A stretch of DNA of 64,000 bases from Candidatus Bathyarchaeota archaeon (GCA_963717465.1 OY970340.1:1632001-1696000), one strand, 5' to 3'; counted from the first letter of the stretch, positions 5,911 through 60,256 are shown. Numbers and translations are program-made. Notes: a model not told the origin generated them from the letters alone.

Positions 5911-5988
5911 TGGCGGGCTCGACGGGAATTGAACCCGCGACCCCCGGATTAAAAGTCCGGTGCTCTAGCCTGACTGAGCTACGAGCCC
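5911..5988 (-). tRNA. tRNA-Lys(UUU), intronless, CCA encoded
   Basis: Reverse complement GGGCTCGTAGCTCAG...CCGGA-CTTTTAA-TCCGG...GGTTCAATTCCC...GAGCCCGCCA folds as a cloverleaf with anticodon TTT. Confidence 0.96.
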
Positions 5989-13069: not shown

Positions 13070-15469
13070 TCATTCTTTGGAGGATATTGGTTGAACTTCT
13101 TGTTTTGCGTTGATCTTTTGCATGAGGTTTTTTCTGACGTCTTCTTTTAGTGGTCCCATTTTCGAAATTCTATTGTTGAATACTTCAAAGACGTTTATTA
13201 TTTTGTTGTATTCTGGGAGCGTAGTCGAATACGATATTATCCGCATCGGTTCGATATTGTAAGCGCTTAAATCTTTTTTCAACTGGTTGGTATATTCCCG
13301 CAAGGCGTCTTCGCTGAACACGCCGCCATGATCTTCAAACATTATAACACCGTCAGCTCCATAAGCAAAAGCGTGCAACAAATGCTTCAAGCCTATACGT
13401 CCTGTACTGGGAACTCTTATTATTTTGACGTTTGCTGGGTAAGTTGCTCGGCTTTGTCCTGCTAAATCTGCAGCTCCATAGGCGATTTCTTTTTCAAGAA
13501 ACGCTACTAGCTTTGGTGTCATGCTGTAATCGCTGACACTGTGAATTTGAGCCATTAACTGTTCTTCAGTTGAATTATTGAGGTTGATTGCTTCTTTTGG
13601 ACACTTTGGCACGCAGATTCCGCATCCAATGCACGAAATAGAATTGACGGTTATGGCTTTCGATGACTTTTCAATCGCTGAGACTGGGCATACTTTTATG
13701 CATATTTCGCAGCTGTCACATTTCTTCGGATCTATGTATGCCACTTCTGGGGAGATTGAGATTTCACCTTTGCCCAAAAACGTAGCTACTCTTGACGCAA
13801 CTGCCGACGATTCTAAGGTTGTCTCTCTGATATCTTTTGGACTTACAGCGCACCCGGCGATGAATATTCCTTCTCGTTGACTATCAACTGGTTTTAGCTT
13901 GTAGTGCTTTTCTACGAGGAACTCGTCTGATCCAATCTGAATTCCAAGTTTTTTAGCTAATTCCTGAGCACCTGAAGCTGGAGTAATTCCGAGAACTAGC
14001 ACAACTAAATCGAAAACTCCTTCAATGGGGCATCCGACAAGGGTATCCTCTGCTTTTACTAATAAATCGCCGCTCTTTAATGGTAAAATTTCGGCTACAC
14101 GCCCTCTAACAAATTTTACGTTATGCTCTCTGGCTTTAGCGTAAAACTCTTCGTATCCCTTTCCATCAGCTCTTATATCAGTGTAGAAAATCCATGGTTC
14201 AGCGTCTGGCACTACTTTTTGAACCAACATTGCTTGTTTAATTGAAGCCATGCAGCCAATCTTACAGCAGTGCTCCACGCCGCCAAGCTCTTTATTCGTC
14301 ATTCGGCTGCCTACGCAAAGGACAAAAGCAACTTTCTTTGCGACTTTCTTATCTGAAGGCCTTTTCATCTCCTGACCTATAAGTCGTTCAAGCTGCAAGT
14401 TGGTTATTACATCTGGATTTAAGCCGAACTTGTATTCCCCAAATTTCTTTGCATCAACAAGTTCAAAGCCTGTTGAAGAAATTACAGAACCAACATCAAG
14501 TTCAATATTTTCTTCCTTTTGGTTAAAATCAATGGCTTTGCCTTTGCAGAATTTCTCGCAGAGTCTGCAAACTCCTTTTGTTAAATATAGACAATGCTCT
14601 TTATCGATTACATACGTCTTTGGGACTGCTTGCTTAAAAGGTGTATAAATGGCTTTTCGAGTTGACAAATTAGCATCAAATTCGCTTGGTACATTGACTG
14701 GGCAAACCTTTTCGCATTCGCCGCATGCGGTACAATTGGCGGCATTAACAAATCTTGGGCTTTTCTTGATTAAAGCTCGGTAGTTTCCTGGAGATCCCTC
14801 AACGGCTTGTACTTCTGCCATTGGAATAATTTTGATGTTAGGATGTTGCGCAACGCTTACCATTTTTGGCGTCAATATGCATTGTGAGCAGTCCAAGGTT
14901 GGGAAAGTTTTGCTTAGTTGAGCCATGTGTCCGCCTATGCTTGGACTTCGCTCCACTAAGTATACTTGATAACCTTTATCTGCAATCTCTATCGAAGTGG
15001 TAATGCCTGCAATTCCGCCTCCAATGACAAGAGTGTCTTTTTTCACTGGAATTGCCTTGGCAGTTAAGGGTTCCAAGTAGCGAGCTCTCGATACTGCGCT
15101 GCGAATTATGTCGATGGCTTTAGAGGTTGCTTCGTCTTTGTTTCCGTGAACCCAACTGCATTGTTCTCTGATATTTGCCATTTCGAGCAAGTAAGGGTTT
15201 AAACCTGCTGCTTCTACGACACGTCTAAATGTGTCCAGATGCATTCGCGGCGAGCAGGATGCTACAACGATTCTGTTTAATCCGTTTTCCTTAATGCCTT
15301 TTTTGATCATTTCTTGCCCTGGGTCACTGCATACGTATTCGTATTTTTCTACGACTTTTACGCCGTCAAGTTTTGAAACAGCTTCTTTTACCTTGGCAAC
15401 GTCAACTGTGTCGCTTATGTTTCCTCCACAGTGGCAAATATAAACTCCGATCTTTGCTTTTTCAGTCAA
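13070..15469 (-). CDS. hdrA: heterodisulfide reductase subunit A fused to a degenerate MvhD domain
   Basis: [33 protein letters not shown] motif, TFPTLDC, ferredoxin motifs; C-terminal YGAADLAG...YPANVKIIRV...GADGV. Confidence 0.93.
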   Translation of the reverse strand: MTEKAKIGVYICHCGGNISDTVDVAKVKEAVSKLDGVKVVEKYEYVCSDPGQEMIKKGIKENGLNRIVVASCSPRMHLDTFRRVVEAAGLNPYLLEMANIREQCSWVHGNKDEATSKAIDIIRSAVSRARYLEPLTAKAIPVKKDTLVIGGGIAGITTSIEIADKGYQVYLVERSPSIGGHMAQLSKTFPTLDCSQCILTPKMVSVAQHPNIKIIPMAEVQAVEGSPGNYRALIKKSPRFVNAANCTACGECEKVCPVNVPSEFDANLSTRKAIYTPFKQAVPKTYVIDKEHCLYLTKGVCRLCEKFCKGKAIDFNQKEENIELDVGSVISSTGFELVDAKKFGEYKFGLNPDVITNLQLERLIGQEMKRPSDKKVAKKVAFVLCVGSRMTNKELGGVEHCCKIGCMASIKQAMLVQKVVPDAEPWIFYTDIRADGKGYEEFYAKAREHNVKFVRGRVAEILPLKSGDLLVKAEDTLVGCPIEGVFDLVVLVLGITPASGAQELAKKLGIQIGSDEFLVEKHYKLKPVDSQREGIFIAGCAVSPKDIRETTLESSAVASRVATFLGKGEISISPEVAYIDPKKCDSCEICIKVCPVSAIEKSSKAITVNSISCIGCGICVPKCPKEAINLNNSTEEQLMAQIHSVSDYSMTPKLVAFLEKEIAYGAADLAGQSRATYPANVKIIRVPSTGRIGLKHLLHAFAYGADGVIMFEDHGGVFSEDALREYTNQLKKDLSAYNIEPMRIISYSTTLPEYNKIINVFEVFNNRISKMGPLKEDVRKNLMQKINAKQEVQPISSKE

Positions 15470-15484
15470 TTTTCGTTACATCTC

Positions 15485-16372
15485 TTATGCTTTAAGTTTG
15501 TTAACGAGAGTTTGAACTTGGGTTTTATTTTTGTCCAGGCCGATCTCTGCTGGGGTCATACCGAGCGCTAAACCCAAGAGTTGCGTTAGAAAGACTACTG
15601 GTAACTCGTATTTAGTTTTCAACTTTTGATTTATTTCAACTTGTCCGTTATCAAATTGGAGATGACAGAAGGCACATGGTGTGACTACACAATCTGCTCC
15701 AGCACTAAGCATGTTGTCAATCTTTGACCTGGTGAAATCAAGGGCAACATCAATGGCGTCAGATCTCACTCCGCCGCCTGCGCCGCAGCATTGCATTTTA
15801 TCCTTGTAATCAACGCTTTCTGCACCCAATGTTCTAACAAAATCATCGATTATAGTTGGGTTTTCAGCTGAACCGTGTTTTCTCACCGCGCTTGGCTTTA
15901 AAAAGTGGCAACCATAGTGGACTGCAACTTTGATGTTGCTAAGTGGGACTTTTACCTTTTCTTTAATAGCTGAGTAGCCAACATCTTCGTTTAAAACTTC
16001 AATTATGTGTTTTACTTTTGTTGTTCCTTTATATTCTCTATTGACTTCTTTGAAGATATCATTCACCTGATGCTTCAATTCGTCATTTTCCATTAAGAGG
16101 CAGTTAGTCTCCTGAAGTGACCCGTAGCAGCCATTACAGGTAACTGCTATATCCTTATTCATTTGCTCGGCGATAGTAAGGTTTCTTGCACTAATCACAG
16201 CCCATGTTAACATGTCAAAAGAGCCGAAGACTCCTGGAGCAGGGCAGCATGAAGCCCCCTTCATATCCAGTAATTCTATTCCAAAAACTCCAAGTGTTTT
16301 TTTGGTTGCTAATTCAATTCCAGGGTAACGGTTGGGCGCAATACATCCAAGAAAGTAAGCATACTGTTTCAT
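15485..16372 (-). CDS. hdrB: CoB-CoM heterodisulfide reductase subunit B
   Basis: GCIAPNRYPG, SCCPAPG, CNGC, HYGCH, CCGAGGG, CAFC. Confidence 0.95.
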   Translation of the reverse strand: MKQYAYFLGCIAPNRYPGIELATKKTLGVFGIELLDMKGASCCPAPGVFGSFDMLTWAVISARNLTIAEQMNKDIAVTCNGCYGSLQETNCLLMENDELKHQVNDIFKEVNREYKGTTKVKHIIEVLNEDVGYSAIKEKVKVPLSNIKVAVHYGCHFLKPSAVRKHGSAENPTIIDDFVRTLGAESVDYKDKMQCCGAGGGVRSDAIDVALDFTRSKIDNMLSAGADCVVTPCAFCHLQFDNGQVEINQKLKTKYELPVVFLTQLLGLALGMTPAEIGLDKNKTQVQTLVNKLKA

Positions 16373-16950
16373 TTTTTAACCTCTCCCTTAACTGCTTTTT
16401 CTGCAACGAGAACCTTAAATCCTGTTTTTTCAAGTAACTTGTTTATTTCTTTAAGTCCCTCAGGATCACTGAGAGTAGTTGGCGGAACCTCTGATAGTCC
16501 CATGTTTTTTCTAACTGCTTTCATTTCATCATTAATAGGCACGGCATGCCCACTCGCCATGAAAGCTTTGGCGATTTTTCTATGTGATTCTTTTATGTTG
16601 CCATTTTTCACGGCCATGTTTCTGAGAATTCTAACTATGTCAGTAGTGTGAATGCCTCGGGGGCACCTTTCTTGACAGGTATAACAAGTAGTGCATTTCC
16701 ACAAATCATCACTCGAAAGAACTTTATCTTTTAATCCTGTCGAAGTCTCTTCAAAAATTTTTCTAATTCGCCATGAAGTTCGTCTTCCAGAGGGGCAGCC
16801 TCCGACACACCTTCCGCATTGAAGGCATTGTCTAAGTTTTTCTATTTCTTCCTTGTTATAGAATTTTGAACCAGCATCTATAACTTCATTGCGAAAATTA
16901 AATGATGCGTCTTGAATAACTTCTTTCTTTGGAGCCATCCTTATCCCCAT
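16369..16950 (-). CDS. hdrC: CoB-CoM heterodisulfide reductase subunit C
   Basis: CLQCGRCVGGCP and CTTCYTCQERCPRG; overlaps hdrB start. Confidence 0.95.
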   Translation of the reverse strand: MGIRMAPKKEVIQDASFNFRNEVIDAGSKFYNKEEIEKLRQCLQCGRCVGGCPSGRRTSWRIRKIFEETSTGLKDKVLSSDDLWKCTTCYTCQERCPRGIHTTDIVRILRNMAVKNGNIKESHRKIAKAFMASGHAVPINDEMKAVRKNMGLSEVPPTTLSDPEGLKEINKLLEKTGFKVLVAEKAVKGEVKK

Positions 16951-17196: not shown

Positions 17197-18222
17197 ATGG
17201 ATTTAAAAGAAAGGTTTCTTGCTTCAACGAAGCGTAAACCAGTTGATAGAGTTCCTTGTGCAAGTCCCCTTCAAACGGCAACAGTAGATTTAATGAATAA
17301 ATGTGGCGCGAGTTGGCCTGAAGCTTTTAGAAATGCAGAGAAAATGGCTACTCTTTCCGCTGCAGCTTACGAAATAGGCGGAATTGAAAGTGTTCGAGTG
17401 CCTTTTGACTTATCCGTCGAGGCAGAAACGTTGGGCTGCAAAATTAAACCAGGCTTGGTCAACGTCCAGCCGCAAACATTAGAAGGCATAATTAATAGTC
17501 CCGATGATGTTGGCAAAGTGAAGGTTCCTGATCCGAAAACAGCTGAACCTATGGCAACAGTCTTAAAAGCAGTAAAGATTCTCAAAGGAAAGTATCCCGA
17601 CAAAGTACCTATTATCGGTGCAGCTTTGGGTCCCATGACGCTAGCCGGACACGTTAATGGTATAGAAAAATTTTTGGTGGCCTTGAGAAAGCAACAGGAT
17701 TTTGCCAGATCAATTCTTGATTTTGCAACGCAAGTTTCAACAACTTATTCGCTTGCGCTAGTTGAAGCTGGCGCTGACGTCATAAGTTTAATAGATCCCT
17801 CAGCAACTGGGGAAATATTAGGGCCAAGGTTCGAAAAAGAGTTCGCTACTCCATACACCAAGAAAGTGGTTGAGCAAATACACAAAGCAGGAGTACCTGT
17901 AATCTTACATATCTGCGGCAAATCTACCATTATTTGGGATTCTATGGTTGAGACTGGATCAGACATGCTCAGCATCAGTGAGCAAGTTGACATGGCTGAA
18001 GCAAAACAAAAAATAGGCAGCAAAGTTGCTCTTGCTGGCAACATTAATCCGATTCAGACTTTGCAGTTTGGGACACCGCAAGACGTGGAGAAAGCAGTCA
18101 AAGAATGCATAGAAAAGGGCGTAGATAACCTTTGCCCAGGTTGCGGATTCACACCGAATACATCACTAGAAAACATGAAGAAAATGACAGATGCGTGCAG
18201 AGCTGTAGGAGCCAAACGATAA
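17197..18222 (+). CDS. mtaA: methylcobamide:CoM methyltransferase (MtaA/MtbA family)
   Basis: URO-D fold; VRVPFD..VEAETLG, Zn motif LHICG...PGCG. Confidence 0.85.
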   Translation: MDLKERFLASTKRKPVDRVPCASPLQTATVDLMNKCGASWPEAFRNAEKMATLSAAAYEIGGIESVRVPFDLSVEAETLGCKIKPGLVNVQPQTLEGIINSPDDVGKVKVPDPKTAEPMATVLKAVKILKGKYPDKVPIIGAALGPMTLAGHVNGIEKFLVALRKQQDFARSILDFATQVSTTYSLALVEAGADVISLIDPSATGEILGPRFEKEFATPYTKKVVEQIHKAGVPVILHICGKSTIIWDSMVETGSDMLSISEQVDMAEAKQKIGSKVALAGNINPIQTLQFGTPQDVEKAVKECIEKGVDNLCPGCGFTPNTSLENMKKMTDACRAVGAKR

Positions 18223-18469
18223 ATTCAAAGGCATGCAGCTTAAACAGCCCTCTCTTTTATTTTAGCGGTATGTAACTGCTCAGAAATGTTTATAATAAAT
18301 TTTCGCAAATTTCGTAATTTTCTAACCCTTTCTCAACATTTTTGCCAGCATGTAGTGTGTATTATTCGTCAATAAACGAAATACATACCTTTCCATGCAC
18401 GTTTAGTGTTTTGGCACTCTATAAGGTAGGTCCGTGAGCGTCGCGCAGCCTTTCGGCAGTGCGCGCTAA

Positions 18470-18660
18470 ATTGCGTCTTGTTAAGTTCAATAGTTGCTCA
18501 AAGAGTTTATTATAACCTTGAAGGATGTATTCAATGACTTCTCCTTTATCATTAAAGACAAGCTCACAGACTTGAACGTCTACATTAAGCATTCTAAAAG
18601 TTTAAGACAATTATCAAAACTATTTTGGAAGATATCTTGAACGATTTGTTTTTCTTCCAT
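18470..18660 (-). pseudogene. frameshifted PAS-domain-like remnant
   Basis: ATG 18660 MEEKQIVQ...; after a shift CELVFNDKGEVIEYILQGYNKLFEQLLNLTR resembles a PAS N-terminus. Confidence 0.35.
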
Positions 18661-18680
18661 AAATCCCAATAATTAATTAT

Positions 18681-18722
18681 TTCTGATTAGGTACTTTATT
18701 AATTCTGATTAGGTATTTTATT
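18681..18722. repeat. 20-bp tandem direct repeat
   Basis: TTCTGATTAGGTACTTTATT (18681) and TTCTGATTAGGTATTTTATT (18703). Confidence 0.8.
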
Positions 18723-19165
18723 TTTTAGGTTTAATCTAATTAACATGACAAAACCACAAGCAGAGATGGCTTGAATTGACCTTGTTTTAGTCCAAGCGAA
18801 TGCAAAAACTGGCAGGAAGAAGAGGTGAAGCATTCCACTTTGGATTAAATGTCAATTCAACCAGCCTCATATTTTTGGATTGGGTTTAGTGCGCACTCCA
18901 AATCAATTGTCTTTTGCGTTATGAAAATATCGTAAGCTGCTTTTACGCATTGATTGGCTGCTTCAAAAATATTTTGATTTGAACTATGATTAAATGGTTC
19001 TGTAGGTATTAATCCCTAAATATGTCTTGGGAGAAATGAGTCTTGAAATCGACATTATTGGATTTTGACCTTTTTGGTTTAAGTCGGTAGGCCTAGCGCT
19101 GCTACAATATATTTAATTAATGTTTACTTAAAGGCTTAAATATCAGTAAAATTTCCAAAGCATTT

Positions 19166-20215
19166 ATGACAACTCCATATGATCGATTGATTAATGTTTT
19201 GAGTGGTAAAAAAGCTGAAGTTGATCGACTTCCCGTTATAAACCCTGTCTCCACTTACACATATGATTCTATGAAAGCATATGACGCCTATTGGCCAGCT
19301 GCCCATAGAGATCCTGAAAAAATGGCAAAGCTAGCCGCAGGGCTCCATAGACTTGCAGGCTTAGGTAACGTGACAGTTCCATTTGAATTGACCTTCGAGG
19401 CTGAGATTCTCGGTGCCCCAGTGCAGTTTTTCGAAGACAAGATAAAATGGCCCACTGTTAAGGGTTTTATTGCTCATGAAGTTTCTGACCTTAAATTTCC
19501 CAAGGATATATCAACGGCTGGAAGAATACCAGTTGTTACTAATGCTATTAAAATATTAAAAAGGGAATTCGAAGGCAAAGTCCCAATAATTGCGTACATA
19601 AATTGTCCATTCACCAGCATCAGTAGCTACTTAGTTGAACCAGTCGAATTCCTGAAATCTCTAAGACGTGAACCCGAGAAGGTTCGCGAATTCTACAAAG
19701 CATCCTACCCATTTTATGGTGAAATTGCAAACGCGTTTAAGGAAGCCGGCGCCGACATAATCACATATAGGGAAGAAGGTGTCTCACTTGACAACATCTC
19801 AATCAAGGATTTCGACGAATATGTTAAGCCATATCTCACTAAACTGATTGGTCTCACAAAGTCGCCGAAAATTCTCCACACCTGCGGTTTATGCATAAGC
19901 CGTGAAAAGGAAATTATTGGAAGGATGATAGAATGCGGTGCCGATGCAATTTCCATTGAGGAAAGGACACCAATGAAAGCAGCAAGAGAATTCGCCGACA
20001 AGGCTAAACCAGGTTATCCTATATGCGGAAATGTTGCTCCTTTTTCGGTTATACATAATGGTCCTATTGAAAGAATCAGATTAGCCGTTAAAAAAGCAAT
20101 TGATGAAGGAGTGGATATAGTATCACCTGGCTGCGACTTTTACTTGGAGACCCCGACTGAGCATGTGAAGGCTTTCGTCAATGCCGCTATTGAGTTTGGT
20201 ACACAAACAAGGTGA
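19166..20215 (+). CDS. MtaA/CmuA (URO-D) family methyltransferase, paralogue 2
   Basis: WPAAHRDPEKMAKL, VPFE..FEAEILGA, LHTCG, PGCD. Confidence 0.85.
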   Translation: MTTPYDRLINVLSGKKAEVDRLPVINPVSTYTYDSMKAYDAYWPAAHRDPEKMAKLAAGLHRLAGLGNVTVPFELTFEAEILGAPVQFFEDKIKWPTVKGFIAHEVSDLKFPKDISTAGRIPVVTNAIKILKREFEGKVPIIAYINCPFTSISSYLVEPVEFLKSLRREPEKVREFYKASYPFYGEIANAFKEAGADIITYREEGVSLDNISIKDFDEYVKPYLTKLIGLTKSPKILHTCGLCISREKEIIGRMIECGADAISIEERTPMKAAREFADKAKPGYPICGNVAPFSVIHNGPIERIRLAVKKAIDEGVDIVSPGCDFYLETPTEHVKAFVNAAIEFGTQTR

Positions 20216-20628
20216 GGAAGTCTGTCAACTTCGTTAGGGAAATCTAAAGGTAAATTTTCGAGGAAACGTTAAGGATTATAATCGGCAAACCTCTTCTTTC
20301 GGCACTTGCCAATAAGCTTGGCATGTCGAAAAGTCTTTATTTTTTCTTTACATTTTTTATATGTGTACATTACTTAGAAAAGCATGTGCTCTGTAACTTA
20401 CCTTTCAACTATTATCCTTATTGTGAAAGCGTTCGCCATGAAGAAAGAGTTGATGAATTAATCGAAAAATAAACAGTCACTTTAAGAATTTTTTACAACA
20501 TTAAGAGATAAAGGTAATACTTAACGAATTTGACAGAAATCGGCAGGTTATGGGCAAATAAAGAAGAAGTTTACAAAAAAGTAAAAATATAGGTGTTTTT
20601 TGCTAAAAAACAACAGGTGAACAAAGAC

Positions 20629-21589
20629 ATGTTTAAATTTAAATCTCAACAAAAAATTTTCAAGATAGGAAATGTGAGTATAGGTGGACAGCCGGGAGAA
20701 CTCCCGAAGGTGCTGTTCGGAACCATTTTTTATGGCAAACATAAAATCGTAGAGGACCAGAAAAAAGGCATTTTCGACAGGAAAAAGGCAGAGGAACTGA
20801 TAAATAAACAAGAAGAGCTTTCTGATCTTACTGGTAACCCTTGCGGGTTAGATGTTGTATGCATCTCGCTTGAGTCAGCTTGTAAGTTCATCGATTTTGT
20901 TGCAGAGACAACTGATTGTCCGATTTCAGCAGATATTTGGACGCCCGAGATTAAAATTAAAGTTCTAAATCATATTGCTGAGGTAGGTCTTTCAGATCGA
21001 ATCATTTACAACAGTGTGATGTCAGTTCCGTTGCCCAGCGAAGATGAACTTAATGCTATTAGAGAGTCAAAGGTTAAGTCAGCTGTAATTCTATGTTACA
21101 ACACAAAGGATCGTACGACCAAAGGTGTTTTGTCTTTGCTCAGGGGCACTGAAGAGCAAAAGGGCTTGCTGGACATAGCTCAGGGAGCAGGAATAGAAAA
21201 GCCATTAGTTGACGCAACCATCTTTACATACATTCCAAGCATAGGCGTTGGAGCTAGAGCATGTTACTTAGTAAAAGATGAATTCGGTCTTCCAGTGGGC
21301 GGTTCACCTGGAAACGCAACTACTGTTTGGAAAGAACCAAAAAAGTGGGGACAAGATATCTTTAAAGCGTGTGAAGCAGCGGCAGAAGTTGTACCTTTAG
21401 CCTTAGGCGCAGATTACCTGTTTTATGGACCAGTTGAGTCGGCCCCTTGGGTATTTCCAGCCTGCGCTGGAGTTGACGCAATGATTGCCAGCAGCAGCTA
21501 AAACTGAATTCGGAATAAAAACCTTGACGAAAGAGCATCCACTGTATAAATTATTCCCCGAAATCGTTAAAAAGTTAGACATTGAATAA
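20629..21589 (+). CDS. MtrH/MtgA-family corrinoid:pterin methyltransferase (+1 frameshift near 21490)
   Basis: MFKF...IGGQPGELP..LFGTIFY..HKIV.D...G.FD, IIYNS, GADYLFYGPVE; the shifted tail contains HPLYKLF; AGGTGA before ATG 20629. Confidence 0.88.
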
Positions 21590-21609
21590 GAATAAAGAGA
21601 TGATGCAAT

Positions 21610-22650
21610 ATGGTTGAATTGACTTCTTATGACAGAGTCATGGCTGTTTTAAACGGCAAGAAAAGTTCTGTTGATAGGCTTCCTTGCATAAACTCTGTTA
21701 GTGTAAGCACGATTGATTTCATGAAGTCTTATGATGCTTATTGGCCAGCCGCACACAAAGACCCTGTGAAAATGGCCAAACTTGGCTCGGCGGCTCACAG
21801 ATTATGTGGTCTTGATAACGTGACAGTACCATTTTGTATGACAGTTGAAGCGGAGGCACTTGGAGCGGTGATTAATTTTCACGAAGACACAATAAAGTGG
21901 CCCTCAATTAAAGAATTTCACGTGAACGAGCCTTCAGATCTTAAATTTCCCAATGACGTATCAACAGCTGGAAGAGTTCCAGTCGTCATTGAAGCAATCA
22001 AAATATTGAAAAAAGAATTTGAAGGCAAAGTTCCCGTAAATGCTTACATAACACCACCATTCACGAGCATCAGCAGTTACCTAGTGGACAGCGTTACTTT
22101 CTTGAAGTGGCTGAGAGTTTCGCCAGAAAAGGTTCATCAATTCGTAAAAAGCGCTAACGATTTTTACGCAAAAATAGCAAAATTATACGAAGAAGCTGGG
22201 GCTGACATAATTACTCTTCATGAGATGGGTGCTTCTACAGATAACATATCACCGAGACATTTTGATCAATTCGTTAAGCCTTATATCGTTGACTTGATTA
22301 AGCCTTTGAAGGCAAAAACGATTTTGAACATTTGCGGAGATGCTAATATGATTGTTGACAAAATGGTTGGAACTGGTGCAAGTGCCATATCAGTAGATGA
22401 GAGAACAAAAATTAGCGGAGTTAGAAATGCAGTGGATAAGATTAAGCCAGGTTATCCTGTCGCCGGTAATTGCCCATCCTACACAGTGATACACTTAGGT
22501 ACTGTCGAAAAAATAAGGGACTATGTCAAGCAAAACATCCAAGATGGCGTTGATATTGTGGCTCCCGGTTGTGATTTTTGGCTAGAGACTTCTGTTGATC
22601 ATGTGAAGGCTTTTATTGATGCAGCCAAAGAATTTGGGAAACTACAATGA
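21610..22650 (+). CDS. MtaA/CmuA (URO-D) family methyltransferase, paralogue 3
   Basis: VPFCMTVEAEALGA, LNICG, PGCD; closely similar to 19166-20215. Confidence 0.85.
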   Translation: MVELTSYDRVMAVLNGKKSSVDRLPCINSVSVSTIDFMKSYDAYWPAAHKDPVKMAKLGSAAHRLCGLDNVTVPFCMTVEAEALGAVINFHEDTIKWPSIKEFHVNEPSDLKFPNDVSTAGRVPVVIEAIKILKKEFEGKVPVNAYITPPFTSISSYLVDSVTFLKWLRVSPEKVHQFVKSANDFYAKIAKLYEEAGADIITLHEMGASTDNISPRHFDQFVKPYIVDLIKPLKAKTILNICGDANMIVDKMVGTGASAISVDERTKISGVRNAVDKIKPGYPVAGNCPSYTVIHLGTVEKIRDYVKQNIQDGVDIVAPGCDFWLETSVDHVKAFIDAAKEFGKLQ

Positions 22651-22740
22651 TAAAGAGGAATACTTTACAAAAAAGTATTTATTCCTGCAACAAAACTCAC
22701 GAAACTTAAAGAACTAATAATTTAATGGAGAGAAAAAATA

Positions 22741-23427
22741 ATGAGTGAAACTGAAATATTTAAGAAACTTTCTGATGCAGTTGATACTGGAAACGTTGAG
22801 ATGGCTAAAGAGGCTGCTAACGAGGCTATCGCTAAGGGCGTTCCAGCTTTGAAGGCGATTTTGAATGGGCTTGCAGAAGGAATGAGAATTGTTGGCGTAA
22901 AATACGAAGAAAAGGAATATTTCTTGCCTGACATGCTTGCGGCAGCAGATGCAATGTACGCTGGGATAGAACTTTTGACTCCTCATATTCCTGCGGCGGA
23001 TAGAAAATCAAAAGGAAAGATAGTTATGGGTGTTGTAGAAGGCGATGTTCATGACATTGGAAAAAACATTGTAAAAATAATGTTGACGGCTTCTGGATAT
23101 GAAATCGTGGACTTGGGCAAAGATGTGCCAACAGGCGAATTTATTAATAAAGCTAAGAGTGAAGGAGCGCAAGTAATAGCGATGTCAACGCTTATGACGC
23201 CAACGCTCATGTCTATGAAAACAGTAGAAGAAAAACTGAAAGAATCAGGAATGAAAGACACTGTTAAAACTATCATAGGCGGCGGCTCAGTAAGCGAGGA
23301 ATGGAAGAATAAAATAGGTTCAGATGCTTATGGCGCGGATTCTTCAGAAGCTGTCAGCAAAGTTAAGCAGTTGCTAGATAGTATCATGACCGCTGTAGAC
23401 GTAATGAAAAAAGATCAGAAACAATAA
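22741..23427 (+). CDS. methyltransferase cognate corrinoid protein (MtaC/MtbC-like)
   Basis: GDVHDIGKNIV B12-binding motif, MSTLMT, IIGGG. Confidence 0.93.
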   Translation: MSETEIFKKLSDAVDTGNVEMAKEAANEAIAKGVPALKAILNGLAEGMRIVGVKYEEKEYFLPDMLAAADAMYAGIELLTPHIPAADRKSKGKIVMGVVEGDVHDIGKNIVKIMLTASGYEIVDLGKDVPTGEFINKAKSEGAQVIAMSTLMTPTLMSMKTVEEKLKESGMKDTVKTIIGGGSVSEEWKNKIGSDAYGADSSEAVSKVKQLLDSIMTAVDVMKKDQKQ

Positions 23428-23441
23428 GAAGGTAGACTAGT

Positions 23442-25358
23442 TTGGCTCCTGAAGAAATTGAGATCGTATTTCAGCCCTATGGCAAACGAACAAAGTTTCC
23501 ATCGGGCATCAACCTTTTAGATGCCGCCAAAGGTTTAGGCATAGATTTATCTTCACTATGCTCAGGAAAAGGCACTTGCGGAAAATGCAAAATCAAGATT
23601 CAAAAAGGAGCAGAGGGTTTAAGTCCCCTCACAGAAAAGGAATCAAAGCGCCTATCCCAAGAGGAACTTGACACATCCCACAGATTAGCATGCCAAGCTA
23701 CAATAACAAACTCTGCAATAATCTATGTTCCACTAACAAGCAGAGTGGGAGTTCAGAGACTACAAACTGACGGGCTTGATGTACCAGTAAAACCCAACCC
23801 CTTCGTGAGAAAATACTATTTAGAAATGACTCAACCATCACTTCATGACATGAGGTCTGATGAAGACAGAGTTTTTGATGCATTAAACAAGGAGTACGGT
23901 CTTTCTAACGTAAAATTTGACTTTGACACCGCAAAAACTCTTCCAATAAACCTTCGAAAAGAAGATTGCAAAGCAACCGCTGTTGTCTGGAACGACAAAG
24001 AAATTATTGCTCTCGAACCTGGAAATACCTCCGATAGATGCTTTGGACTTGCCGTGGATATCGGATCTACAAAGCTAGCAGGATTCTTGATGGATCTTAA
24101 AACCGGTCAAGTTGTTGCCGTCGCAGCTAGAATGAACCCCCAAATTCCGCTGGGCGAAGATGTCATGTCAAGGATAACCTATGCTATGATGGGTGAGTGG
24201 AAAGCCATCCAGGAACTCCAAACAGCTGTTGTCTCAGGAATTAACGAAATAACTGAGGAATGCTGCAAAAAGGCAAATGTGAAAATTGAAGAAATATACG
24301 AAACCAACTTCGTCGGTAACACAGCAATGCAACTTTGTTTCCTCGGTTTCTGGTCTAGATATGTAGGCTTCTCACCTTACCCGCCAGTACTTCGAAGAGG
24401 TGTTGATGTACGCGCTGCAAGGTTAGGCTTAAAGGCTCACCCAAATGCGAATACGCACTATCTCCCGGTCATTGGAGGTTTCGTGGGAGCAGATAGTATT
24501 GCATGCATCTTAGCATCAAAACTTCTAGAAGAAGATGAAATCAAAATGATTATCGACGTAGGCACAAACACTGAAATCATGTGCGGAAATAAAGACCTAT
24601 GCATGGCTGACTCTTGTGCATCTGGTCCAGCCTTTGAAGGAATGGAAATAAAATTCGGCATGAGAGCAGCAACAGGAGCTATCGAAAAAATTAGCATTGA
24701 TCCTGATACATTGGACCTTAACTTCAGAACTATTGGAAATGCTCCTGCTGTTGGCATAACTGGATCCGCACTCGTCGACGCTCCAGCTGAGCTTCTGAAG
24801 TCTGGTATAATAAACTTGAGGGGCAACTTTGTTCCAGAAATGATGAAGAGAACTGATAGATTAAGAAAGGGATCTAGCGGCTGGGAATTTGTGATAGCGA
24901 GAAAGAATGAAACAAGCATCGGCACAGATGTCGTTTTAACCTTAGCTGATGTTAGAGCACTCCAGCAGGCAAAAGCTGCAATGCACGTTGGAGCAGACAT
25001 TCTGATGAAAAGGATGAACATTCCAATAGAGAAACTGGATAAACTGGTGATTGCTGGGGCCTTCGGAAACTATATCGACGCCGAAAACGCAAGGACAATC
25101 GGCATGTATCCTGAAGTGCCGCTTGAAAAGATCGCTTTCGTTGGAAACCTTGCTGGCACAGGTTCTAGACTTGCTTTGATTTCAAAAGAAGAAAGAGCGA
25201 AAGCTGAAGAAATAAGCAAAAAGGTAAAGTACTATGAACTTGCAGTGGATCCTGAATTCCAGACAGAATATGCGAAGTCACTGTACTTCCCGCACTCTGA
25301 CCTGGATAAGTATCCAAGCACTAAAGAATTACTGAAGAAGTTAGGTCGCATTCCTTAA
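23442..25358 (+). CDS. ATP-dependent reductive activator of corrinoid proteins (RACE/RACo type, ASKHA/DUF4445)
   Basis: N-terminal [2Fe-2S] CSGKGTCGKC...RLAC; DIGST, DVGTNTE, GPAFEG, AGAFG. Confidence 0.9.
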   Translation: MAPEEIEIVFQPYGKRTKFPSGINLLDAAKGLGIDLSSLCSGKGTCGKCKIKIQKGAEGLSPLTEKESKRLSQEELDTSHRLACQATITNSAIIYVPLTSRVGVQRLQTDGLDVPVKPNPFVRKYYLEMTQPSLHDMRSDEDRVFDALNKEYGLSNVKFDFDTAKTLPINLRKEDCKATAVVWNDKEIIALEPGNTSDRCFGLAVDIGSTKLAGFLMDLKTGQVVAVAARMNPQIPLGEDVMSRITYAMMGEWKAIQELQTAVVSGINEITEECCKKANVKIEEIYETNFVGNTAMQLCFLGFWSRYVGFSPYPPVLRRGVDVRAARLGLKAHPNANTHYLPVIGGFVGADSIACILASKLLEEDEIKMIIDVGTNTEIMCGNKDLCMADSCASGPAFEGMEIKFGMRAATGAIEKISIDPDTLDLNFRTIGNAPAVGITGSALVDAPAELLKSGIINLRGNFVPEMMKRTDRLRKGSSGWEFVIARKNETSIGTDVVLTLADVRALQQAKAAMHVGADILMKRMNIPIEKLDKLVIAGAFGNYIDAENARTIGMYPEVPLEKIAFVGNLAGTGSRLALISKEERAKAEEISKKVKYYELAVDPEFQTEYAKSLYFPHSDLDKYPSTKELLKKLGRIP

Positions 25359-25700: not shown

Positions 25701-26531
25701 TTATTTTTTTCTTACTTGCTCAAGTTGTTGTATTCTTGTATTCACATCGACAGCTTTGCCCCATAACCCCTCAAAAAATACTCGCAACACTCGAATAAAC
25801 ACTTCGCTATCAGTCCAAAAAGCAACCATATCTTCGCCCATCTTAGATTCCCAAACTAGCATCGCACTTTTATCATCTCCTATTAAAAGTCTATATGTTA
25901 TATTTTCCTCCAAAACTAAACAACGCGATTCTGCATTAATACCTAATTCAATAGTCGTAGCCATAAATCGGTTAACTTTTTCGACTTCTTCACGTTTAAA
26001 ATTGATTAAAGATCTAATTTTCACATTCTTAAAATTGCCTTGTACTATCTGTTCAGAAGATAGTCCCTTAAAATTTGAGACCATCCATAATATCTCTTTC
26101 TTTGCATCAAGAACCACCTGTACGCCTTTTGCAGATATAATTTCTTGCCGTTTAAGAATTAGAAATTTTTCATTATCCGCTATTGGGTAATCAGATGTTA
26201 TTGACTTAAATTGAGCTATGATCTCCTTTTTATCAGCTTCTAAGCAATGAGTTTGTTCTTTCATTGCTTTAATATTCAAGTCTAGAACTTTTTCAATTGG
26301 AACAGCAATATATGCCATTGGGCGGTCTATTGTTGATTCTACGATGCCCTTACTTTGTAAACTCTTTAGAGCACGATATGTATCCCCTTTATGGAGTCTT
26401 AGTCTGTTTATAATTTCCTTAGCATTGGTAGGGACTTGATTTTTTGCGAGGTAAAGGAAAACTTCTTGCTCTTTTTTAGTCAGCCCCAGTTTTGTAAGAA
26501 TCTCTGATAACTGATTGTTGTATCCATTCAT
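25701..26531 (-). CDS. TrmB-family transcriptional regulator
   Basis: LGLTKKEQEVFLYL...YRALKSLQSKGIVE...RPMAYIAVP. Confidence 0.85.
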   Translation of the reverse strand: MNGYNNQLSEILTKLGLTKKEQEVFLYLAKNQVPTNAKEIINRLRLHKGDTYRALKSLQSKGIVESTIDRPMAYIAVPIEKVLDLNIKAMKEQTHCLEADKKEIIAQFKSITSDYPIADNEKFLILKRQEIISAKGVQVVLDAKKEILWMVSNFKGLSSEQIVQGNFKNVKIRSLINFKREEVEKVNRFMATTIELGINAESRCLVLEENITYRLLIGDDKSAMLVWESKMGEDMVAFWTDSEVFIRVLRVFFEGLWGKAVDVNTRIQQLEQVRKK

Positions 26532-28045: not shown

Positions 28046-29387
28046 ATGATCGGAATGAAGTACAAGGACAAAATAGACCTGTATAGTGAGGAAGGAAAAC
28101 TACTTGAGTCTAATGTACCTCTTGAGGCCATTAGTCCAATTTTAAACCCTGCGATTAAGAAAATAATTCATACATTGATGAGATCCGTCGCTGTTAACTT
28201 AGAAGGCATAGAGAAATCTTTGGCAAACGGAACAGTTGGCGGTGAAGGATGTAAGATTCCTGGAAGAGAACTACAACTCGACATTGTGAAAAATGCCAAT
28301 GTCATTGCAGACAAGGTTTTGGAAAAAGTCAGAGCTAAGAAAGGCGATGATGCTGAAGTTCAAATTCTAGCTGGCGGAAAACAACTCCTAGTTAAATCTC
28401 CAACTCTGAGACTCGAAGCTAGTGCTGAATACACAACATCTTTAACTAACATTGCATCAGCTGTGACGCAAACGATCATTGATGTATTCAACGTATCAAT
28501 GTTCGATGCGGATATGGTTAAAGCAGCTGTTTGGGGCAGGTACCCACAATCAATTAATCTAATGGGCAGTAATCTTGCCTCTGTCCTAGGTGTGCCACAG
28601 GCAAACGAGGGCTTAGGTTACGCTCTAAGAAACATATCCGCGGCTTATGTAGCAATGATATGCAAGAAGAACGCTTTAAACACAGCAGCCTTATCCTCAA
28701 TACTTGAACAGATCAGCAGCGTTCGAAATGGGAGACGCAATCGGCGACTTTGAAAGAATGCAACTTCTCGGACTCGCATTCCAAGGATTAAACGCTAACA
28801 ACCTCGTTTACGACCTTGTTAAGGAAAACGGTAAAACCGGAACAGTCGGCACTGTTATTACCAGCCTCGTAAAACGTGCACTCAAAGACAAAGTTATACG
28901 ACCTCTTGAAAAGAACGAATCAGGTTTTGTTACATATACTACTGACGACATGGCGCTCTGGAACGCATACGCAGGAGCTGGATTATTAGCAGCCACAATG
29001 ATAAGCCAAGGCGCAATGAGAGCTATGCAAGGAGTTTCAGCAGTAGTAGTATATTTCAACGACATGCTCGAACACGAAACAGGATTGCCCTCAGTCGAGT
29101 TCGGCAAATCCATGGGTTCAGGAGTTGAATTCTCATTCTTCAGCCACTCAATATACGGCGGTGGAAGCCCAGTCGTATTCCACGGAAACCACATCGTGAC
29201 AAGACACAGCAAAGGATTCTCCATACCTCCAGTCGCAGCAGCAATCGCACTCGACGCAGGAACAGTTTACTATACACCAGAAAAAGTCGCTGGAATAATT
29301 AGCGAAGTTTTCAGCACAATACCAGAACTAAGAGAGCCAATCGCTCATGTAGCAAAAGCTGCTGCAGAAGTGAAGGCCTCTATATAG
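28046..29387 (+). CDS. mcrB: methyl-coenzyme M reductase beta subunit (+1 frameshift near 28713)
   Basis: [61 protein letters not shown]. Confidence 0.97.
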
Positions 29388-29399
29388 GCGAAAAAATCG

Positions 29400-29847
29400 G
29401 TGCCAAACACACCCCCTCAATTTTCTTTTAAAAATATTTCTGAAAATAACGAAGAAATCGAAATTTTTCCGAATCGTCTATTAAGCCTTGCAACTTTAGA
29501 AAAAATATTAAATAAAATTTCTAAAATTGAAGAAGTTATCTCTGTAACCTTGCAGGGTCAGCGTCTTCCTAAAGAAGAAGCTACTTGCGCTTGTGAAGCT
29601 GAAAACCAAGTTGAGAGCAGAAAGATTCTTGTGCAAAATCAGGAAATTGAAATTCACATCATGACTGGTCGAATAATTCTCGAAGTGCCAAGCCAAGAAA
29701 CTGAAAAAGTTATCAAAAAAATTAAGAAAATATCTGATCAACTGTCTTCCATTTGGCTATAGTATTAGAGTTGGCAAATTCCTTAAAAGAAACGTGTCAC
29801 TAGCTGATTATAAGAGAGAATGGTTTCAAAATATCTCCAAAAAATAA
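29400..29847 (+). CDS. mcrD: MCR operon protein D (+1 frameshift near 29746)
   Basis: IEIFPNRLL...TLEKILN, QGQRLP, GRIILE; shifted tail LPFGYSIRVGKFLK...SLADY; lies between mcrB and mcrC. Confidence 0.9.
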
Positions 29848-29875
29848 TTCGTATCTTTAAGATTCTTAGGAGTCG

Positions 29876-30545
29876 ATGATAAAGTTGCCTGGTGGTTCTT
29901 GTCGCAGAATGGAGAAGCCTTGCATAGGCAAAAAGACACAGTTTATCGATTGCCGAGAGGTAATGGGTTTAGGTTTAGGTGGAGGATTAGCGCAACGTGG
30001 AACTCTCGCTGAAGCGTCTCCTGCAGATGTTATTGTTATAGCTATGTCACCTGGAAGAAGGCATATTACTAAACCCGTTTGCGAAATTACCTCTGCATTA
30101 AGAGAAGCTGGTATCAGTGTGAGTGTTTTGATTTTAGATGCTGGTTCAAGTGTACCACCTGATGCACCTTCCTCAAGACAAGGGTACGGACCAATCTTTG
30201 GTTTGTCTCCAGAAGAATTTGCAAAGAATTTCAAAGCATAAACTTGCAATAATTCATTTGGGAAATGTTAGAGCTCACATTGTTTATAAAGCTCGTGCAA
30301 TTTTGAGAATGGTCAATATTCCTGCGGTTGTTATTTGTCAATGTCCAGTTGATTTTGAGGATTTTGCTGAAGTCGGTGTTAGAACGCGCTTTGTAAAACC
30401 GAATGCGACTGAGGAGCAGACTCTTGGTGAGATTGTTGAAATTGTTACTGACGTGGTAAGGGGTCAAACATGCCCTCGAAGTAAACTCGATGAGATAAGT
30501 GGAAAAGTCAAGTCATCACTAAACTTATTAAGGAAAACAAAATAA
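29876..30545 (+). CDS. mcrC: MCR operon protein C (+1 frameshift near 30224)
   Basis: [54 protein letters not shown]. Confidence 0.95.
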
Positions 30546-30596
30546 TAGTTGAAAAGAAACCATACAATAATTGAGACAAAACGGAGTGTATAGCAT

Positions 30597-31379
30597 TTGG
30601 AAAAATCAGATTATAAGCCTCAATATACCCCTGGCGTCTCCGATGTAGCTAAGAACAGAAGAAACTACATGGACCCAAAGCACAAATTGGAGAAGCTTCG
30701 CTCAATTTCTGACGAATCTCTGATAAGGTTGCTTGGGCATCGCGAGCCTGGAGAAGCCTATAAATCAGTTCACCCACCCCTTGAAGAAATGGGCGAACCT
30801 AAATGCACGATAAGGAAACTTGTTGAACCCACACCTGGAGCCAAAGCTGGTGACAGAATCACATTCATACAATTCACCGATTCTGTGTACTTCTCGCCTT
30901 TGGCACCCTACAGCAGGTGCTGGATGTACATGTCAAGATACAGAGGTGTAGACCCTGGCGCTCTATCAGGAAGATGCCCCCTTGAAATGAGAGAAAGAGA
31001 TTTAGAAGCAGTTTCAAAGGAGCTAATTGAAACAGAAGTTTTCGACCCAGCAAGAACCGCAGTTAGAGGCGCAACAGTACACGGCCACTCTTTGAGACTG
31101 GACGAGAACGGAATGATGTTTGACTTATTAAGACGCTCTGTTTACGACAAGAAGAAGCAAGAAATCACATATGTTAAAGATCAGTTGGGAGTACCGTTAG
31201 ACACGCCAATTGCACTTGGAAAACCGTTACCAGAAGAAGAATTAAGGAAAAGAACAACAATCTTCAGGGCAGACGGAACATCCATACGAAAAGATCCAGA
31301 GCTACTAAAATATATTCAAAGAATTCACACACTAAGAACAATCGCTGGTCATAACCCGGAAAAAGCCAAAGGACTATAA
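30597..31379 (+). CDS. mcrG: methyl-coenzyme M reductase gamma subunit
   Basis: LGHREPGEAYKSVHPPLEEM, GAKAGDR, RGATVHGHSLRLDENGMMFD. Confidence 0.97.
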   Translation: MEKSDYKPQYTPGVSDVAKNRRNYMDPKHKLEKLRSISDESLIRLLGHREPGEAYKSVHPPLEEMGEPKCTIRKLVEPTPGAKAGDRITFIQFTDSVYFSPLAPYSRCWMYMSRYRGVDPGALSGRCPLEMRERDLEAVSKELIETEVFDPARTAVRGATVHGHSLRLDENGMMFDLLRRSVYDKKKQEITYVKDQLGVPLDTPIALGKPLPEEELRKRTTIFRADGTSIRKDPELLKYIQRIHTLRTIAGHNPEKAKGL

Positions 31380-31405
31380 AAAGAGGTTAAAATGAGGTAA
31401 TAATT

Positions 31406-33078
31406 ATGGTTAAGAAAGAAAAAATGTTTTTAGAAGAACTTGAGAAGAAATTCAAGGAAGATCCTACTAAAAAGACTACTACCTACTACCATTTTGGTGG
31501 CTGGAAGCAGTCAAAGAGAAAGCAAGAATTCTACAGAGCTAGCCAAAAGATCGAGAAAGAGAGAGGCATACCGATGTACTCTCCGGATACTTCACTTAGG
31601 TGGTGTACCTGTAGGTCAAAGACTTCTTATGCCCTATAAGATCTCTGGGACAGACGTTTATTGTGAAGGAGACGACTTACATTTCATCAACAACGCAGCC
31701 ATGCAGCAAATGTGGGACGACATAAGAAGGACAGTAATCGTAGGCTTAGATGCCCCGCACAAAGTATTAGAAAGCAGATTAGGCAAAGAAGTAACACCAG
31801 AAACAATAAGCGAATACATGGAAATACTCAACCACACAATGCCTGGAGCAGCAGTAGTTCAAGAACACATGGTTGAAACACACCCCGCACTAGTGTCAGA
31901 TTGCTATGTAAAACTATTCACAGGCAACGATGAGCTTGCAGATGCCATAGACAAAAGATTCGTAATTAACATAAACAAATTATTCCCCAAAGAAAATGCT
32001 GCAGCCCTAAAGAAAGCAATCGGAAACCGCGTTTGGCAAGTAGTCAGAGCACCCTCAATGGTTGGTCGTGTCTGCGACGGTGGAACAATTTCCAGATGGT
32101 CAGCAATGCAAATTTGCATGGCTATGATATGCTCATACAAACTAATGGCAGGAGAAGCAGCCACTGGAGAATTCGCCTATGCATCAAAACACGCCGAATT
32201 AATTGAAATGGGTACAATGACACCTTGGAGAAGACAAAGAGGTCCAAACGAGCCTGGTGGTATTACATTTGGTTATCTAGCTGATATGATCCAATACGAC
32301 AGAGTTCACCCAGATGACCCAGTAAGACAATCCCTTGAAACAATCGCTGCAGGCGCAATGCTATTCGACCAAATATACTTCGGCAGCTACATGTCAGGTG
32401 GTGTAGGATTCACTCAATATGCAACAGCAACCTACACAGACAACATTCTTGACGATATGTGCTATAACATTGCTGATTACGTTAAGAAGAAATATGGCGG
32501 ATTTACAAAGGCAAAAGTTTCCATGGACACTATACTCGACGTTGCAACAGAAGCTACAGAATATGGTCTTGACCAATATGACATGTACCCAACTCTAGCG
32601 GAAACTCACTTCGGAGGCTCACAAAGAACCTCAGTAGTATCTGCCTCAGCAGGAGTAGGTGTCGCTCTCGCTACTGGACGTGCTCAAGCAGGAGTAAACG
32701 GATGGTACCTATCTCAAATACTGCACAAAGAAATAGCCGGCAGACTCTGGATTCTACGGTTACGATGCACAAGACCAAATGGGAGCAGCAAACAGCTTTG
32801 CCTTCCGAGGCGACGAAGGATTGCCAATGGAACTACGAGGACCTAACTATCCAAACTACGCAATGAACGTTGGCCACACCGGTGAATACGCAGGAATAGT
32901 CGCAGCAGCGCATTCAGCTCGAGGAGACGCCTGGTGTTGCAACCCAATAATCAAAGTCGCATTCGCAGACCCAAGCCTCAAATTCGACTTCGTAAACGTC
33001 AGAGCATGCTTCGCAAAAGGCGCCACAAGAGAATTCATGCCTGCTGCAGAACGTACAGCAGTCATACCTCCAAAGTAA
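31406..33078 (+). CDS. mcrA: methyl-coenzyme M reductase alpha subunit (+1 frameshifts near 31589 and 32748)
   Basis: [65 protein letters not shown]. Confidence 0.98.
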
Positions 33079-34744: not shown

Positions 34745-35128
34745 TTTACTAAAATTGTAATACCAGTTGATGATCAAAACGGTCTAGAATCACGTTTGGC
34801 TGAACATTTCGGAGAAGCACCTTACTACGCAATTATTGAATTGGATGAAAATAGCAAAATAACCAATTTCCAAACCGAACCAAATAAGAGCGTCCATGTA
34901 GGCGGAACTGGATATCCACATGAGCACCTGTTACTTCTGAAACCCAACGTTTTTGTCGTCCGCGGTATGGGACCAGGATGCCTAGCAAGTATTCGAAGCT
35001 ACGGAATCAATGTGCTAAAAGCTGATGGGAGTACCGTTAAGGAAATAGTTGATTTCTATATTGGCGGAAATTTAATGCAACTTATCGGCGGCTGCAATCA
35101 TGCACATAATCACTCCAACAACTGCTAA
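34745..35128 (+). CDS. NifX/NifB-family (FeMo-cofactor-precursor-binding domain) protein
   Basis: KIVIP...HFGEAPYY...GMGPG; frame open upstream of TTG 34796; start uncertain. Confidence 0.8.
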   Translation, partial: FTKIVIPVDDQNGLESRLAEHFGEAPYYAIIELDENSKITNFQTEPNKSVHVGGTGYPHEHLLLLKPNVFVVRGMGPGCLASIRSYGINVLKADGSTVKEIVDFYIGGNLMQLIGGCNHAHNHSNNC

Positions 35129-35269
35129 AAATGTGTAGCGCCAAAGAAGTCATGGGGCAAAATATTGCTTAAATTCTGATTTATTTTCTAAACTTTATAC
35201 CGAATTTTTATTCCAAAAGCCATAAATATGTTTATTTAATAATCAGGCAGACGAGAAAGTGTTTGTAAA

Positions 35270-57200: not shown

Positions 57201-57211
57201 TCTGACCAAAC

Positions 57212-59254: not shown

Positions 59255-59258
59255 AGAA

Positions 59259-60204: not shown

Positions 60205-60256
60205 AATATGAATAAAACAATCAATGCACAACTTTCAGTTATTGGAGTGAATTTGT

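Follow-up and report, generated by a model that had tools for sequence, protein, structure and literature searches.

We examined a 64,000-nt window of a genome deposited as Candidatus Bathyarchaeota archaeon (GCA_963717465.1 OY970340.1:1632001-1696000), in which six genes for corrinoid-dependent methyl transfer lie close to an operon for methyl-coenzyme M reductase (MCR). All positions below are those within this window unless genome coordinates are given. Judged from sequence, the six genes appear to be a conserved five-gene corrinoid methyl-transfer module with one extra gene, uroD1, alongside it, a reading to which we give about an even chance of being right. The module most likely transfers methyl groups between tetrahydromethanopterin (H4MPT) and a methylated compound of the sulfur or selenium type, and UroD1 is the best candidate for an exit of methyl groups to coenzyme M (CoM). 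The original prediction for this locus was that the six genes could form a soluble bypass of the sodium-pumping Mtr complex. Our analysis supports this in part: a split of methyl groups between H4MPT and CoM at a corrinoid protein is plausible, and likelier than a reversible shuttle between methyl-CoM and H4MPT.

Gene content of the methyl-transfer cluster

Open reading frame (ORF) calls together with Pfam and NCBIfam scans recovered all six genes that had been proposed between positions 17197 and 25358, each of them on the plus strand (Table 1). The module consists of the genes for UroD2, an MtrH-like protein, UroD3, a corrinoid protein as the putative methyl carrier and a RACo-type activase. 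The MtrH-like protein is assigned to the MtrH/MtgA family by a near full-length match to PF02007 (positions 2-289 of 299) and by its similarity to solved members of that family, the closest being MtgA of Desulfitobacterium hafniense (6sj8) at 224 bits, with an MtrH chain (9qtp) at 190 bits. The corrinoid protein has the DxHxxG motif as DVHDIG at residues 102-107, and the N-terminal 2Fe-2S domain of the activase has its cysteines at Cys40, Cys46, Cys49 and Cys84. The three URO-D proteins are MtaA-like and 341-349 aa long, and UroD2 and UroD3 are 59% identical to each other. The URO-D proteins and the corrinoid protein are encoded by separate ORFs, with no fusion. UroD1 scored 370 bits against NCBIfam PRK06252, above the cut-off of 244, and its closest solved structure is MtaA of Methanosarcina mazei (4ay7, 219 bits); its zinc-site motif is His238-x-Cys ... 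Cys316. As had also been claimed, the Pfam and NCBIfam scans of window ORFs of at least 100 aa gave no match to MtrA-G, MtaB, MttB, MtbB or MtmB, while nine ORFs matched nothing.

The module is conserved in genomes that lack McrA

The five genes are found in the same order in the metagenome locus L045, where the products are 62% (UroD2), 61% (MtrH-like), 62% (UroD3), 68% (corrinoid protein) and 67% (RACo) identical to those of the window, and in rearranged form in the metagenome loci L043, L046 and L054. The order was also found in four genomes (G183, G234, G138 and G233) of the same class, which is probably Bathyarchaeia as judged solely from the source names of the closest homologues. In these four genomes the module usually stands beside a third type of MtaA-like gene, which we call the UroD744 type after a gene at 744 kb of the present genome. 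This third-type gene adjoins the module in G183, G234, G225, G233, L045 and L043. In G225, a member of the same family that has no McrA, the UroD2- and UroD3-type genes enclose two CdhD-family genes and a ferredoxin gene in place of an MtrH-like gene (locus L137, G225:C17 3144-5691). Since the module contains either an MtrH-like gene or CdhD-family genes, the latter resembling the corrinoid iron-sulfur protein (CoFeSP) of acetyl-CoA synthase, it appears to be tied to the Wood-Ljungdahl pathway without a need for CoM.

The association was also apparent in a set of 79 metagenome loci found with the MtrH-like protein, in which URO-D neighbours were counted within 5 kb; a scan of genome contigs with this protein gave just 5 loci. 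A UroD2- or UroD3-type gene was present at 5 of the 10 loci whose MtrH-like protein was at least 49% identical to that of the window, compared to 2 of the 69 others. At six of these 69 loci with a less similar MtrH-like protein, genes of the MtoB-, MttB- or MtmB-like kind were present instead. For both the MtrH-like protein and UroD2, the nearest homologues are encoded on unnamed contigs and in metagenome-assembled genomes (MAGs) labelled Bathyarchaeota, Hodarchaeota and Heimdallarchaeota, those of UroD2 in the labelled MAGs being 56-61% identical. None of the five module-bearing class genomes tested has McrA, and cysteate synthase scored above its cut-off in only one of the five. Most of the gene set thus occurs also in relatives that make no methane. 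Because McrA is absent from all five tested carriers, the original job of the module was probably not CoM chemistry.

Only UroD1 groups with methanogen CoM methyltransferases

Two quick trees with midpoint roots and SH-aLRT support values only were used to place the URO-D proteins. UroD1 clusters with sequences labelled as Methanosarcina MtbA and Methanomassiliicoccales MtaA/MtbA (SH-aLRT 98). It is the only one of the cluster's URO-D proteins in this methanogen MtaA/MtbA group, and it is set apart from the three URO-D clades associated with the module. UroD2 and UroD3 fall into two sister clades on a long and fully supported stem in both trees, and the members of these clades come only from unnamed contigs or from MAGs of Bathyarchaeota, Hodarchaeota and Heimdallarchaeota. 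The label MtaA, which had been given to the first gene of the cluster, does not suit all three URO-D proteins, as UroD2 and UroD3 belong to other clades. Look-ups of UroD2 and UroD3 in a protein atlas returned generic MtaA/CmuA clusters, which do not separate the possible readings. Relatives of UroD1 at 82-86% identity were found only on unnamed contigs, and its best match among 300 other genomes of the class was 47% identical.

The zinc sites of these proteins bear on their likely substrates. According to part of a preprint by Kountz and Balskus (PMC10418091), a His-Cys-Cys site marks the S-methyltransferases of the superfamily, the favoured ligand being sulfur or selenium, while the Cys ligands are replaced in O-methyltransferases and O-demethylases. 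The motif His-x-Cys ... Cys was present in 15 of 15 sequences of the UroD1 clade, in 8 of 8 of the UroD744 type and, as His-x-Cys ... PGCD, in all 21 examined of the UroD2 type. In the UroD3 type, all 11 sequences examined had Asn-x-Cys ... Cys, with Asn in place of the His ligand. Because the site is rich in Cys, UroD2 and UroD3 most likely act on a sulfur or selenium compound that carries a methyl group.

The same observations allow the module to be explained as an archaeal gene set related to the 'type 1 mlp' or sdm clusters, with a function in sulfur or selenium salvage or in the methylation of thiols or selenide and with no role in energy metabolism or methanogenesis. Such a system could demethylate dimethylselenide or methanethiol, or it could methylate sulfide. 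As described in part of PMC10418091, type 1 mlp clusters comprise several MtaA-like proteins, a corrinoid protein and a RACE activase, occur mostly in non-methanogens and are proposed by the authors to serve methyl-sulfur or methyl-selenide metabolism; the same source cites the sdm genes of Methanococcus voltae. The module resembles these clusters in having at least two MtaA-like paralogues of distinct and well-supported lineages with a corrinoid protein and an activase of this type, a likeness of make-up. A His-Cys-Cys site is present in UroD1, UroD2 and the third type, and Asn-Cys-Cys in the UroD3 type. The module is likewise carried by non-methanogens. However, the published clusters, as far as that part of the source describes them, have no pterin methyltransferase, whereas the module includes an MtrH-like gene, or in G225 CoFeSP-like genes, by which it is linked to the Wood-Ljungdahl pathway. 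In addition, the module of the present genome sits within a methanogenesis island. We consider a pure salvage function quite unlikely.

An alternative in which the module is an O-demethylase system of the Mto or Mtv kind draws on its architecture. MtoABCD is the methoxydotrophy system of Methermicoccus shengliensis and, as described in part of PMC8630106, combines URO-D-related methyltransferases, a corrinoid protein of about 22 kDa, an MtrH-like H4MPT methyltransferase and an activase whose N-terminus has a 2Fe-2S site in one cluster, as does the module. Methyl groups enter at H4MPT rather than CoM in that system (PMC8630106, in part), and by gene likeness the same would hold for the module. 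Relatives within the class have been reported to demethylate lignin-derived aromatics (PMC10989822; PMC11697101). On the other hand, MtoB1 and MtoB2 are MtvB-related proteins of 47-48 kDa (PMC8630106, in part), whereas UroD2 and UroD3 are MtaA-like, of 349 and 346 aa, and keep both of the Cys ligands that O-methyltransferases are said in part of PMC10418091 to replace. Furthermore, a separate URO-D protein of MtoB size (449 aa) is encoded with a corrinoid protein of its own at 1091 kb of the genome. An O-demethylase function for the module is therefore very unlikely in our view.

Other three-component systems offer partial parallels. A corrinoid protein with the DxHxxG motif and a RACo-type 2Fe-2S activase are shared with the Mto and Mtg systems, but the cluster has no gene of the MtoB/MtvB type or for MtgB of the MttB superfamily, such genes being located elsewhere in the genome. 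MtoABCD is reportedly present in Archaeoglobus fulgidus as well, and M. shengliensis is said to still use Mtr, unlike the present genome, which has no MtrA or MtrE. The MtrH-like protein is comparable to D. hafniense MtgA as a stand-alone methyl-corrinoid:pterin methyltransferase that works with a corrinoid protein. An MtgABC system has been reported for Bathyarchaeia, with no activase identified in that Bathyarchaeal cluster (PMC10989822). The first-step partner in MtgABC is MtgB, where the module has URO-D proteins.

The genome encodes most of a methyl branch but no MtrA or MtrE

The genome is a single contig of 3.05 Mb with a marker completeness of 88%. The original prediction had called for a genome search for mtrA-G, for mer, mtd, mch, ftr and fwd, and for cdh. 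No match to MtrA (PF04208) or MtrE (PF04206) was found in the contig, while both control methanogens were matched; MtrB, C, D, F and G were given no search of their own. Because both subunits are absent from a one-contig genome, no complete mtr operon can carry the methyl flux, and the objection that such an operon might lie elsewhere is thereby removed. Genes for Mer, Mch, Ftr, FwdA and CdhC are present. MtaB was not found in the genome search. The genome has four MtrH-like genes and about 22 genes for corrinoid proteins. Outside the cluster, a 523-aa protein of the MttB superfamily occurs as nine paralogues, and there are about six genes of the MtmB-like kind. There are five URO-D genes, namely the three in the window, the one at 744 kb and the one for the 449-aa protein. 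The MtrH-like, corrinoid protein and RACo genes have a second copy at 750-754 kb that is 78-82% identical and partly broken, with UroD744, the fourth MtaA-like gene, and an MttB-superfamily gene nearby (738-757 kb, L038).

Genes for MCR are rare among the relatives of this organism. McrA was found in 1 of 41 genomes, the present one (G000), the others being 24 of the same genus and 16 of the same order. The MCR alpha subunit was present in 3 of 301 genomes of the class and in none of the 77 other genomes of the family. Genes of the URO-D family were likewise found in none of the 24 genus relatives at E 1e-20. According to a 2025 preprint, known MCR-encoding Thermoproteota, apart from one class, have neither Mtr nor the methyl branch. 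The present genome departs from this pattern. It combines a canonical MCR with the greater part of the H4MPT methyl branch (Mer, Mch, Ftr and FwdA) and with carbon monoxide dehydrogenase/acetyl-CoA synthase, and has no MtrA or MtrE.

These data can be set against the proposal that the corrinoid protein, the MtrH-like protein and an MtaA-like protein form a dedicated, soluble and reversible methyl-H4MPT:CoM methyltransferase that replaces Mtr without sodium translocation. The proposal gains from the fact that both kinds of second-step methyltransferase flank a single corrinoid protein with no MtaB, MttB, MtbB or MtmB in the window, from the absence of MtrA and MtrE in the genome and from the adjoining mcr, CoM-synthesis and hdrA2B2C2 genes. 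It has precedents as well, since the idea of a soluble substitute for Mtr is already in print. CmtA of Methanosarcina acetivorans, a fused corrinoid/URO-D protein, was proposed in this role (as cited in part of PMC4716644), as was MtrAH of a Methanomassiliicoccales MAG from Lake Pavin (MALP), where MtrA would be the carrier (PMC6147122, in part). Like these, the present cluster would concern methyl transfer between pterin and CoM in the cytoplasm of an MCR-bearing archaeon without a sodium gradient; unlike the fused CmtA and the MtrA carrier of MALP, it has separate genes and an MtbC/MtgC-like carrier. In principle the scheme also resembles the Mtr complex (MtrA-H), where the methyl group passes from pterin to a corrinoid through the MtrH family and then to CoM, but the carrier is different, MtrA and MtrE are missing and, the proteins being soluble, no sodium would be pumped.

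Several lines of evidence speak against such a dedicated shuttle. The presence of the module in genomes that lack McrA indicates that the URO-D genes beside the MtrH-like gene are not CoM-specific by descent. The many corrinoid-protein, MttB-superfamily and MtmB-like genes elsewhere, together with the gene of MtoB size, could load corrinoids directly, so a shuttle from pterin to CoM is not required. In the opposite direction, methyl transfer from methyl-CoM back to the pterin is endergonic without coupling and is thought to need a sodium gradient, according to part of PMC6147122. We regard the dedicated shuttle as unlikely. Since the module occurs in genomes without McrA, since only UroD1 is MtaA/MtbA-like and since the back-transfer is endergonic, a branch point at the methylated corrinoid is likelier than a shuttle from CoM to pterin. 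The further suggestion that methane-derived methyl groups are funnelled into acetogenesis drew no support from any of our tests.

Integrity of the genes

Some of the genes are interrupted in the assembly. The MtrH-like gene has its main frame at 20629-21501 and a one-base frameshift near its 3' end, with the conserved tail HPLYKLFP in another frame at 21485-21589. The genes mcrB, mcrC and mcrA, and probably mcrD, are also split by frameshifts, and the duplicate set at 750 kb is interrupted by an in-frame TAA as well as a frameshift. These breaks would be expected if the module and the mcr genes were decaying, non-functional passengers of a transferred island. However, broken frames are frequent throughout the assembly, including several hdrA paralogues, and completeness is just 88% despite a one-contig genome. 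Short-read contigs from peat metagenomes that are 90-97% identical to the window have one base fewer at 28713, 29744 and 31588/9 in the mcr genes, which fits insertion errors, and no break affects the ORFs of UroD1, UroD2, UroD3, the corrinoid protein or RACo. Most of the frame breaks are thus probably assembly errors, strain-specific decay being the less likely cause. Because breaks are common in the assembly and related contigs differ by one base at the three mcr sites, we set the frameshifts aside as evidence of decay, and we consider decay of the island highly improbable.

Proposed methyl branch point at the corrinoid protein

We assigned steps by the chemistry of each protein family, building on what was observed above about the genes present, their clades and synteny and the lack of MtrA and MtrE. 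RACo would reduce the corrinoid protein to the Co(I) state with ATP. The UroD2/UroD3 pair would load or unload the carrier by exchanging methyl groups between its corrinoid and a heteroatom compound. The MtrH-like protein would exchange the methyl group between the corrinoid and H4MPT and so connect the carrier with the Wood-Ljungdahl pathway. UroD1, which only the present genome has upstream of the module, beside hdrA2B2C2 and near mcr, most likely hands the corrinoid-bound methyl group to CoM. Methyl groups would then be split at the corrinoid, one part going to H4MPT for oxidation or acetyl-CoA synthesis and the other to CoM for methane formation, and the many other pairs of methyltransferases and corrinoid proteins in the genome could share both exits. 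With two soluble exits from the corrinoid, to H4MPT and to CoM, Mtr would be unnecessary for methyl dismutation. Such a scheme keeps to the idea behind the original prediction but puts the link at the methylated corrinoid.

A number of observations weigh against this branch-point reading. UroD1 stayed below the NCBIfam cut-offs for MtaA_Meth (331 bits, cut-off 400) and for MtbA (309 bits, cut-off 600), and its clade also includes proteins of McrA-lacking organisms (G096 and a protein labelled Alphaproteobacteria). The gap of 943 bp between uroD1 and uroD2 holds a repeated element, which makes co-transcription of uroD1 with the module doubtful. The element, at 18467-18877, has genome copies at 335036-335425 (80% identical) and, in shorter form, at 332182-332279, and may be the remnant of a mobile element. 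The other two MCR-bearing genomes of the class, G045 and G187, gave no UroD2-type match at E 1e-80, so the module does not accompany MCR in general. The F420-dependent Mtd (PF01993) was not found in the genome, other types of methylene-H4MPT dehydrogenase not having been searched. Finally, if the frameshifts in the MtrH-like and mcr genes are real, the pathway is decaying.

Genomic neighbourhood

The genes around the cluster are listed in Table 1. The hdrA2-hdrB2-hdrC2 genes are divergent from uroD1 and provide a context of heterodisulfide reduction; HdrA2 scored 889 bits with NCBIfam, below the cut-off of 1100, while HdrB (TIGR03288, 439 bits) and HdrC (TIGR03290, 200 bits) were both over their cut-offs. 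Downstream of the cluster, at distances of 3-30 kb, are the mcr operon and genes of CoM synthesis. The McrA fragment gave 596 bits to solved MCRs compared to 327 bits to ethyl-CoM reductase, and is of the canonical methane type by this measure. Methanogenesis marker genes, atwA, cysteate synthase and sulfopyruvate decarboxylase are also found downstream within the window. The TrmB-family protein may regulate the adjoining genes.

Table 1. Features of the methyl-transfer cluster and its surroundings in the 64,000-nt window.
Feature	Position	Strand	Assignment and remarks
UroD1	17197..18222	+	Putative methylcobamide methyltransferase of the MtaA/MtbA clade; URO-D 285 bits
Spacer	18223..19165	.	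943 bp between UroD1 and UroD2; no ORF of at least 80 aa
UroD2	19166..20215	+	UroD2-type clade, His-Cys-Cys; URO-D 204 bits; 349 aa
MtrH-like	20629..21589 (alternative start 20593)	+	Stand-alone, MtrH/MtgA-type; PF02007 290 bits
UroD3	21610..22650	+	UroD3-type clade, Asn-Cys-Cys; URO-D 217 bits; 346 aa
Corrinoid protein	22741..23427	+	Putative methyl carrier; B12-binding and B12-binding_2 domains; TIGR02370 216 bits
RACo	23442..25358	+	RACo/AcsV-type ATP-dependent reductive activase; Fer2, RACo_linker, Raco_middle and RACo_C_ter domains
hdrA2-hdrB2-hdrC2	13070..16950	-	Divergent from UroD1; heterodisulfide reduction context
TrmB-family regulator	25701..26531	-	Transcription regulator; PF01978 45.5 bits
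mcrBDCGA	28046..33069	+	Canonical type; several one-base frameshifts in the assembly

DNA searches against the genus relatives separate two parts of the window. All 12 genus genomes searched match the window at about 0.9-12.1 kb, where Cdv genes, tRNA-Lys, MTAP/APRT and thioredoxin are encoded, whereas these genomes gave only short or weak matches at 13-60 kb, including weak matches only in the hdrA2B2C2 region. The stretch that is unique within the genus is at least 47 kb long, from 13070 to at least 60000, and comprises hdr, the methyl module, mcr, the marker genes, atwA and CoM synthesis. It was probably gained horizontally as an island of at least 47 kb. A search for tRNA and integrase genes at its border found only a tRNA-Lys (anticodon TTT, minus strand, 5911-5988), which lies about 7 kb before the border and is conserved among the genus relatives.

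Further genes of the window are recorded here as observations of their own. NifX-like, radical SAM and NifB-like genes are interspersed among the mcr and marker genes (34796-36298 and 40111-41091). At 56375-64000, pieces of a lipoate-protein ligase gene and genes for LipS1/LipS2 lipoyl synthases and a GcvH-like protein adjoin a second hdrA, and similar gene sets are present at 738-742 kb and 2812-2826 kb of the genome, near other corrinoid genes. We take the set at 56375-64000 to resemble the lipoate-binding-protein sets of sulfur-oxidising Hdr-like systems.

Implications

The finding carries a warning for annotation. Because MtaA-like genes beside a stand-alone MtrH are found in archaea that lack MCR, they cannot be read as CoM methyltransferases, and an MtaA-like gene in this position does not imply one. 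For the joining of methyl-CoM chemistry to the pterin pathway, the cluster supplies one carrier, one activase, one pterin enzyme and three URO-D enzymes as candidates. We propose, tentatively and as a doubtful possibility, that a probable member of the Bathyarchaeia carries out methyl-dismutating methanogenesis without Mtr and gained the full kit for it on an island of at least 47 kb. If this is true, MCR would be connected to the Wood-Ljungdahl pathway in a third manner, in addition to dismutation that depends on Mtr and methyl reduction that depends on hydrogen.

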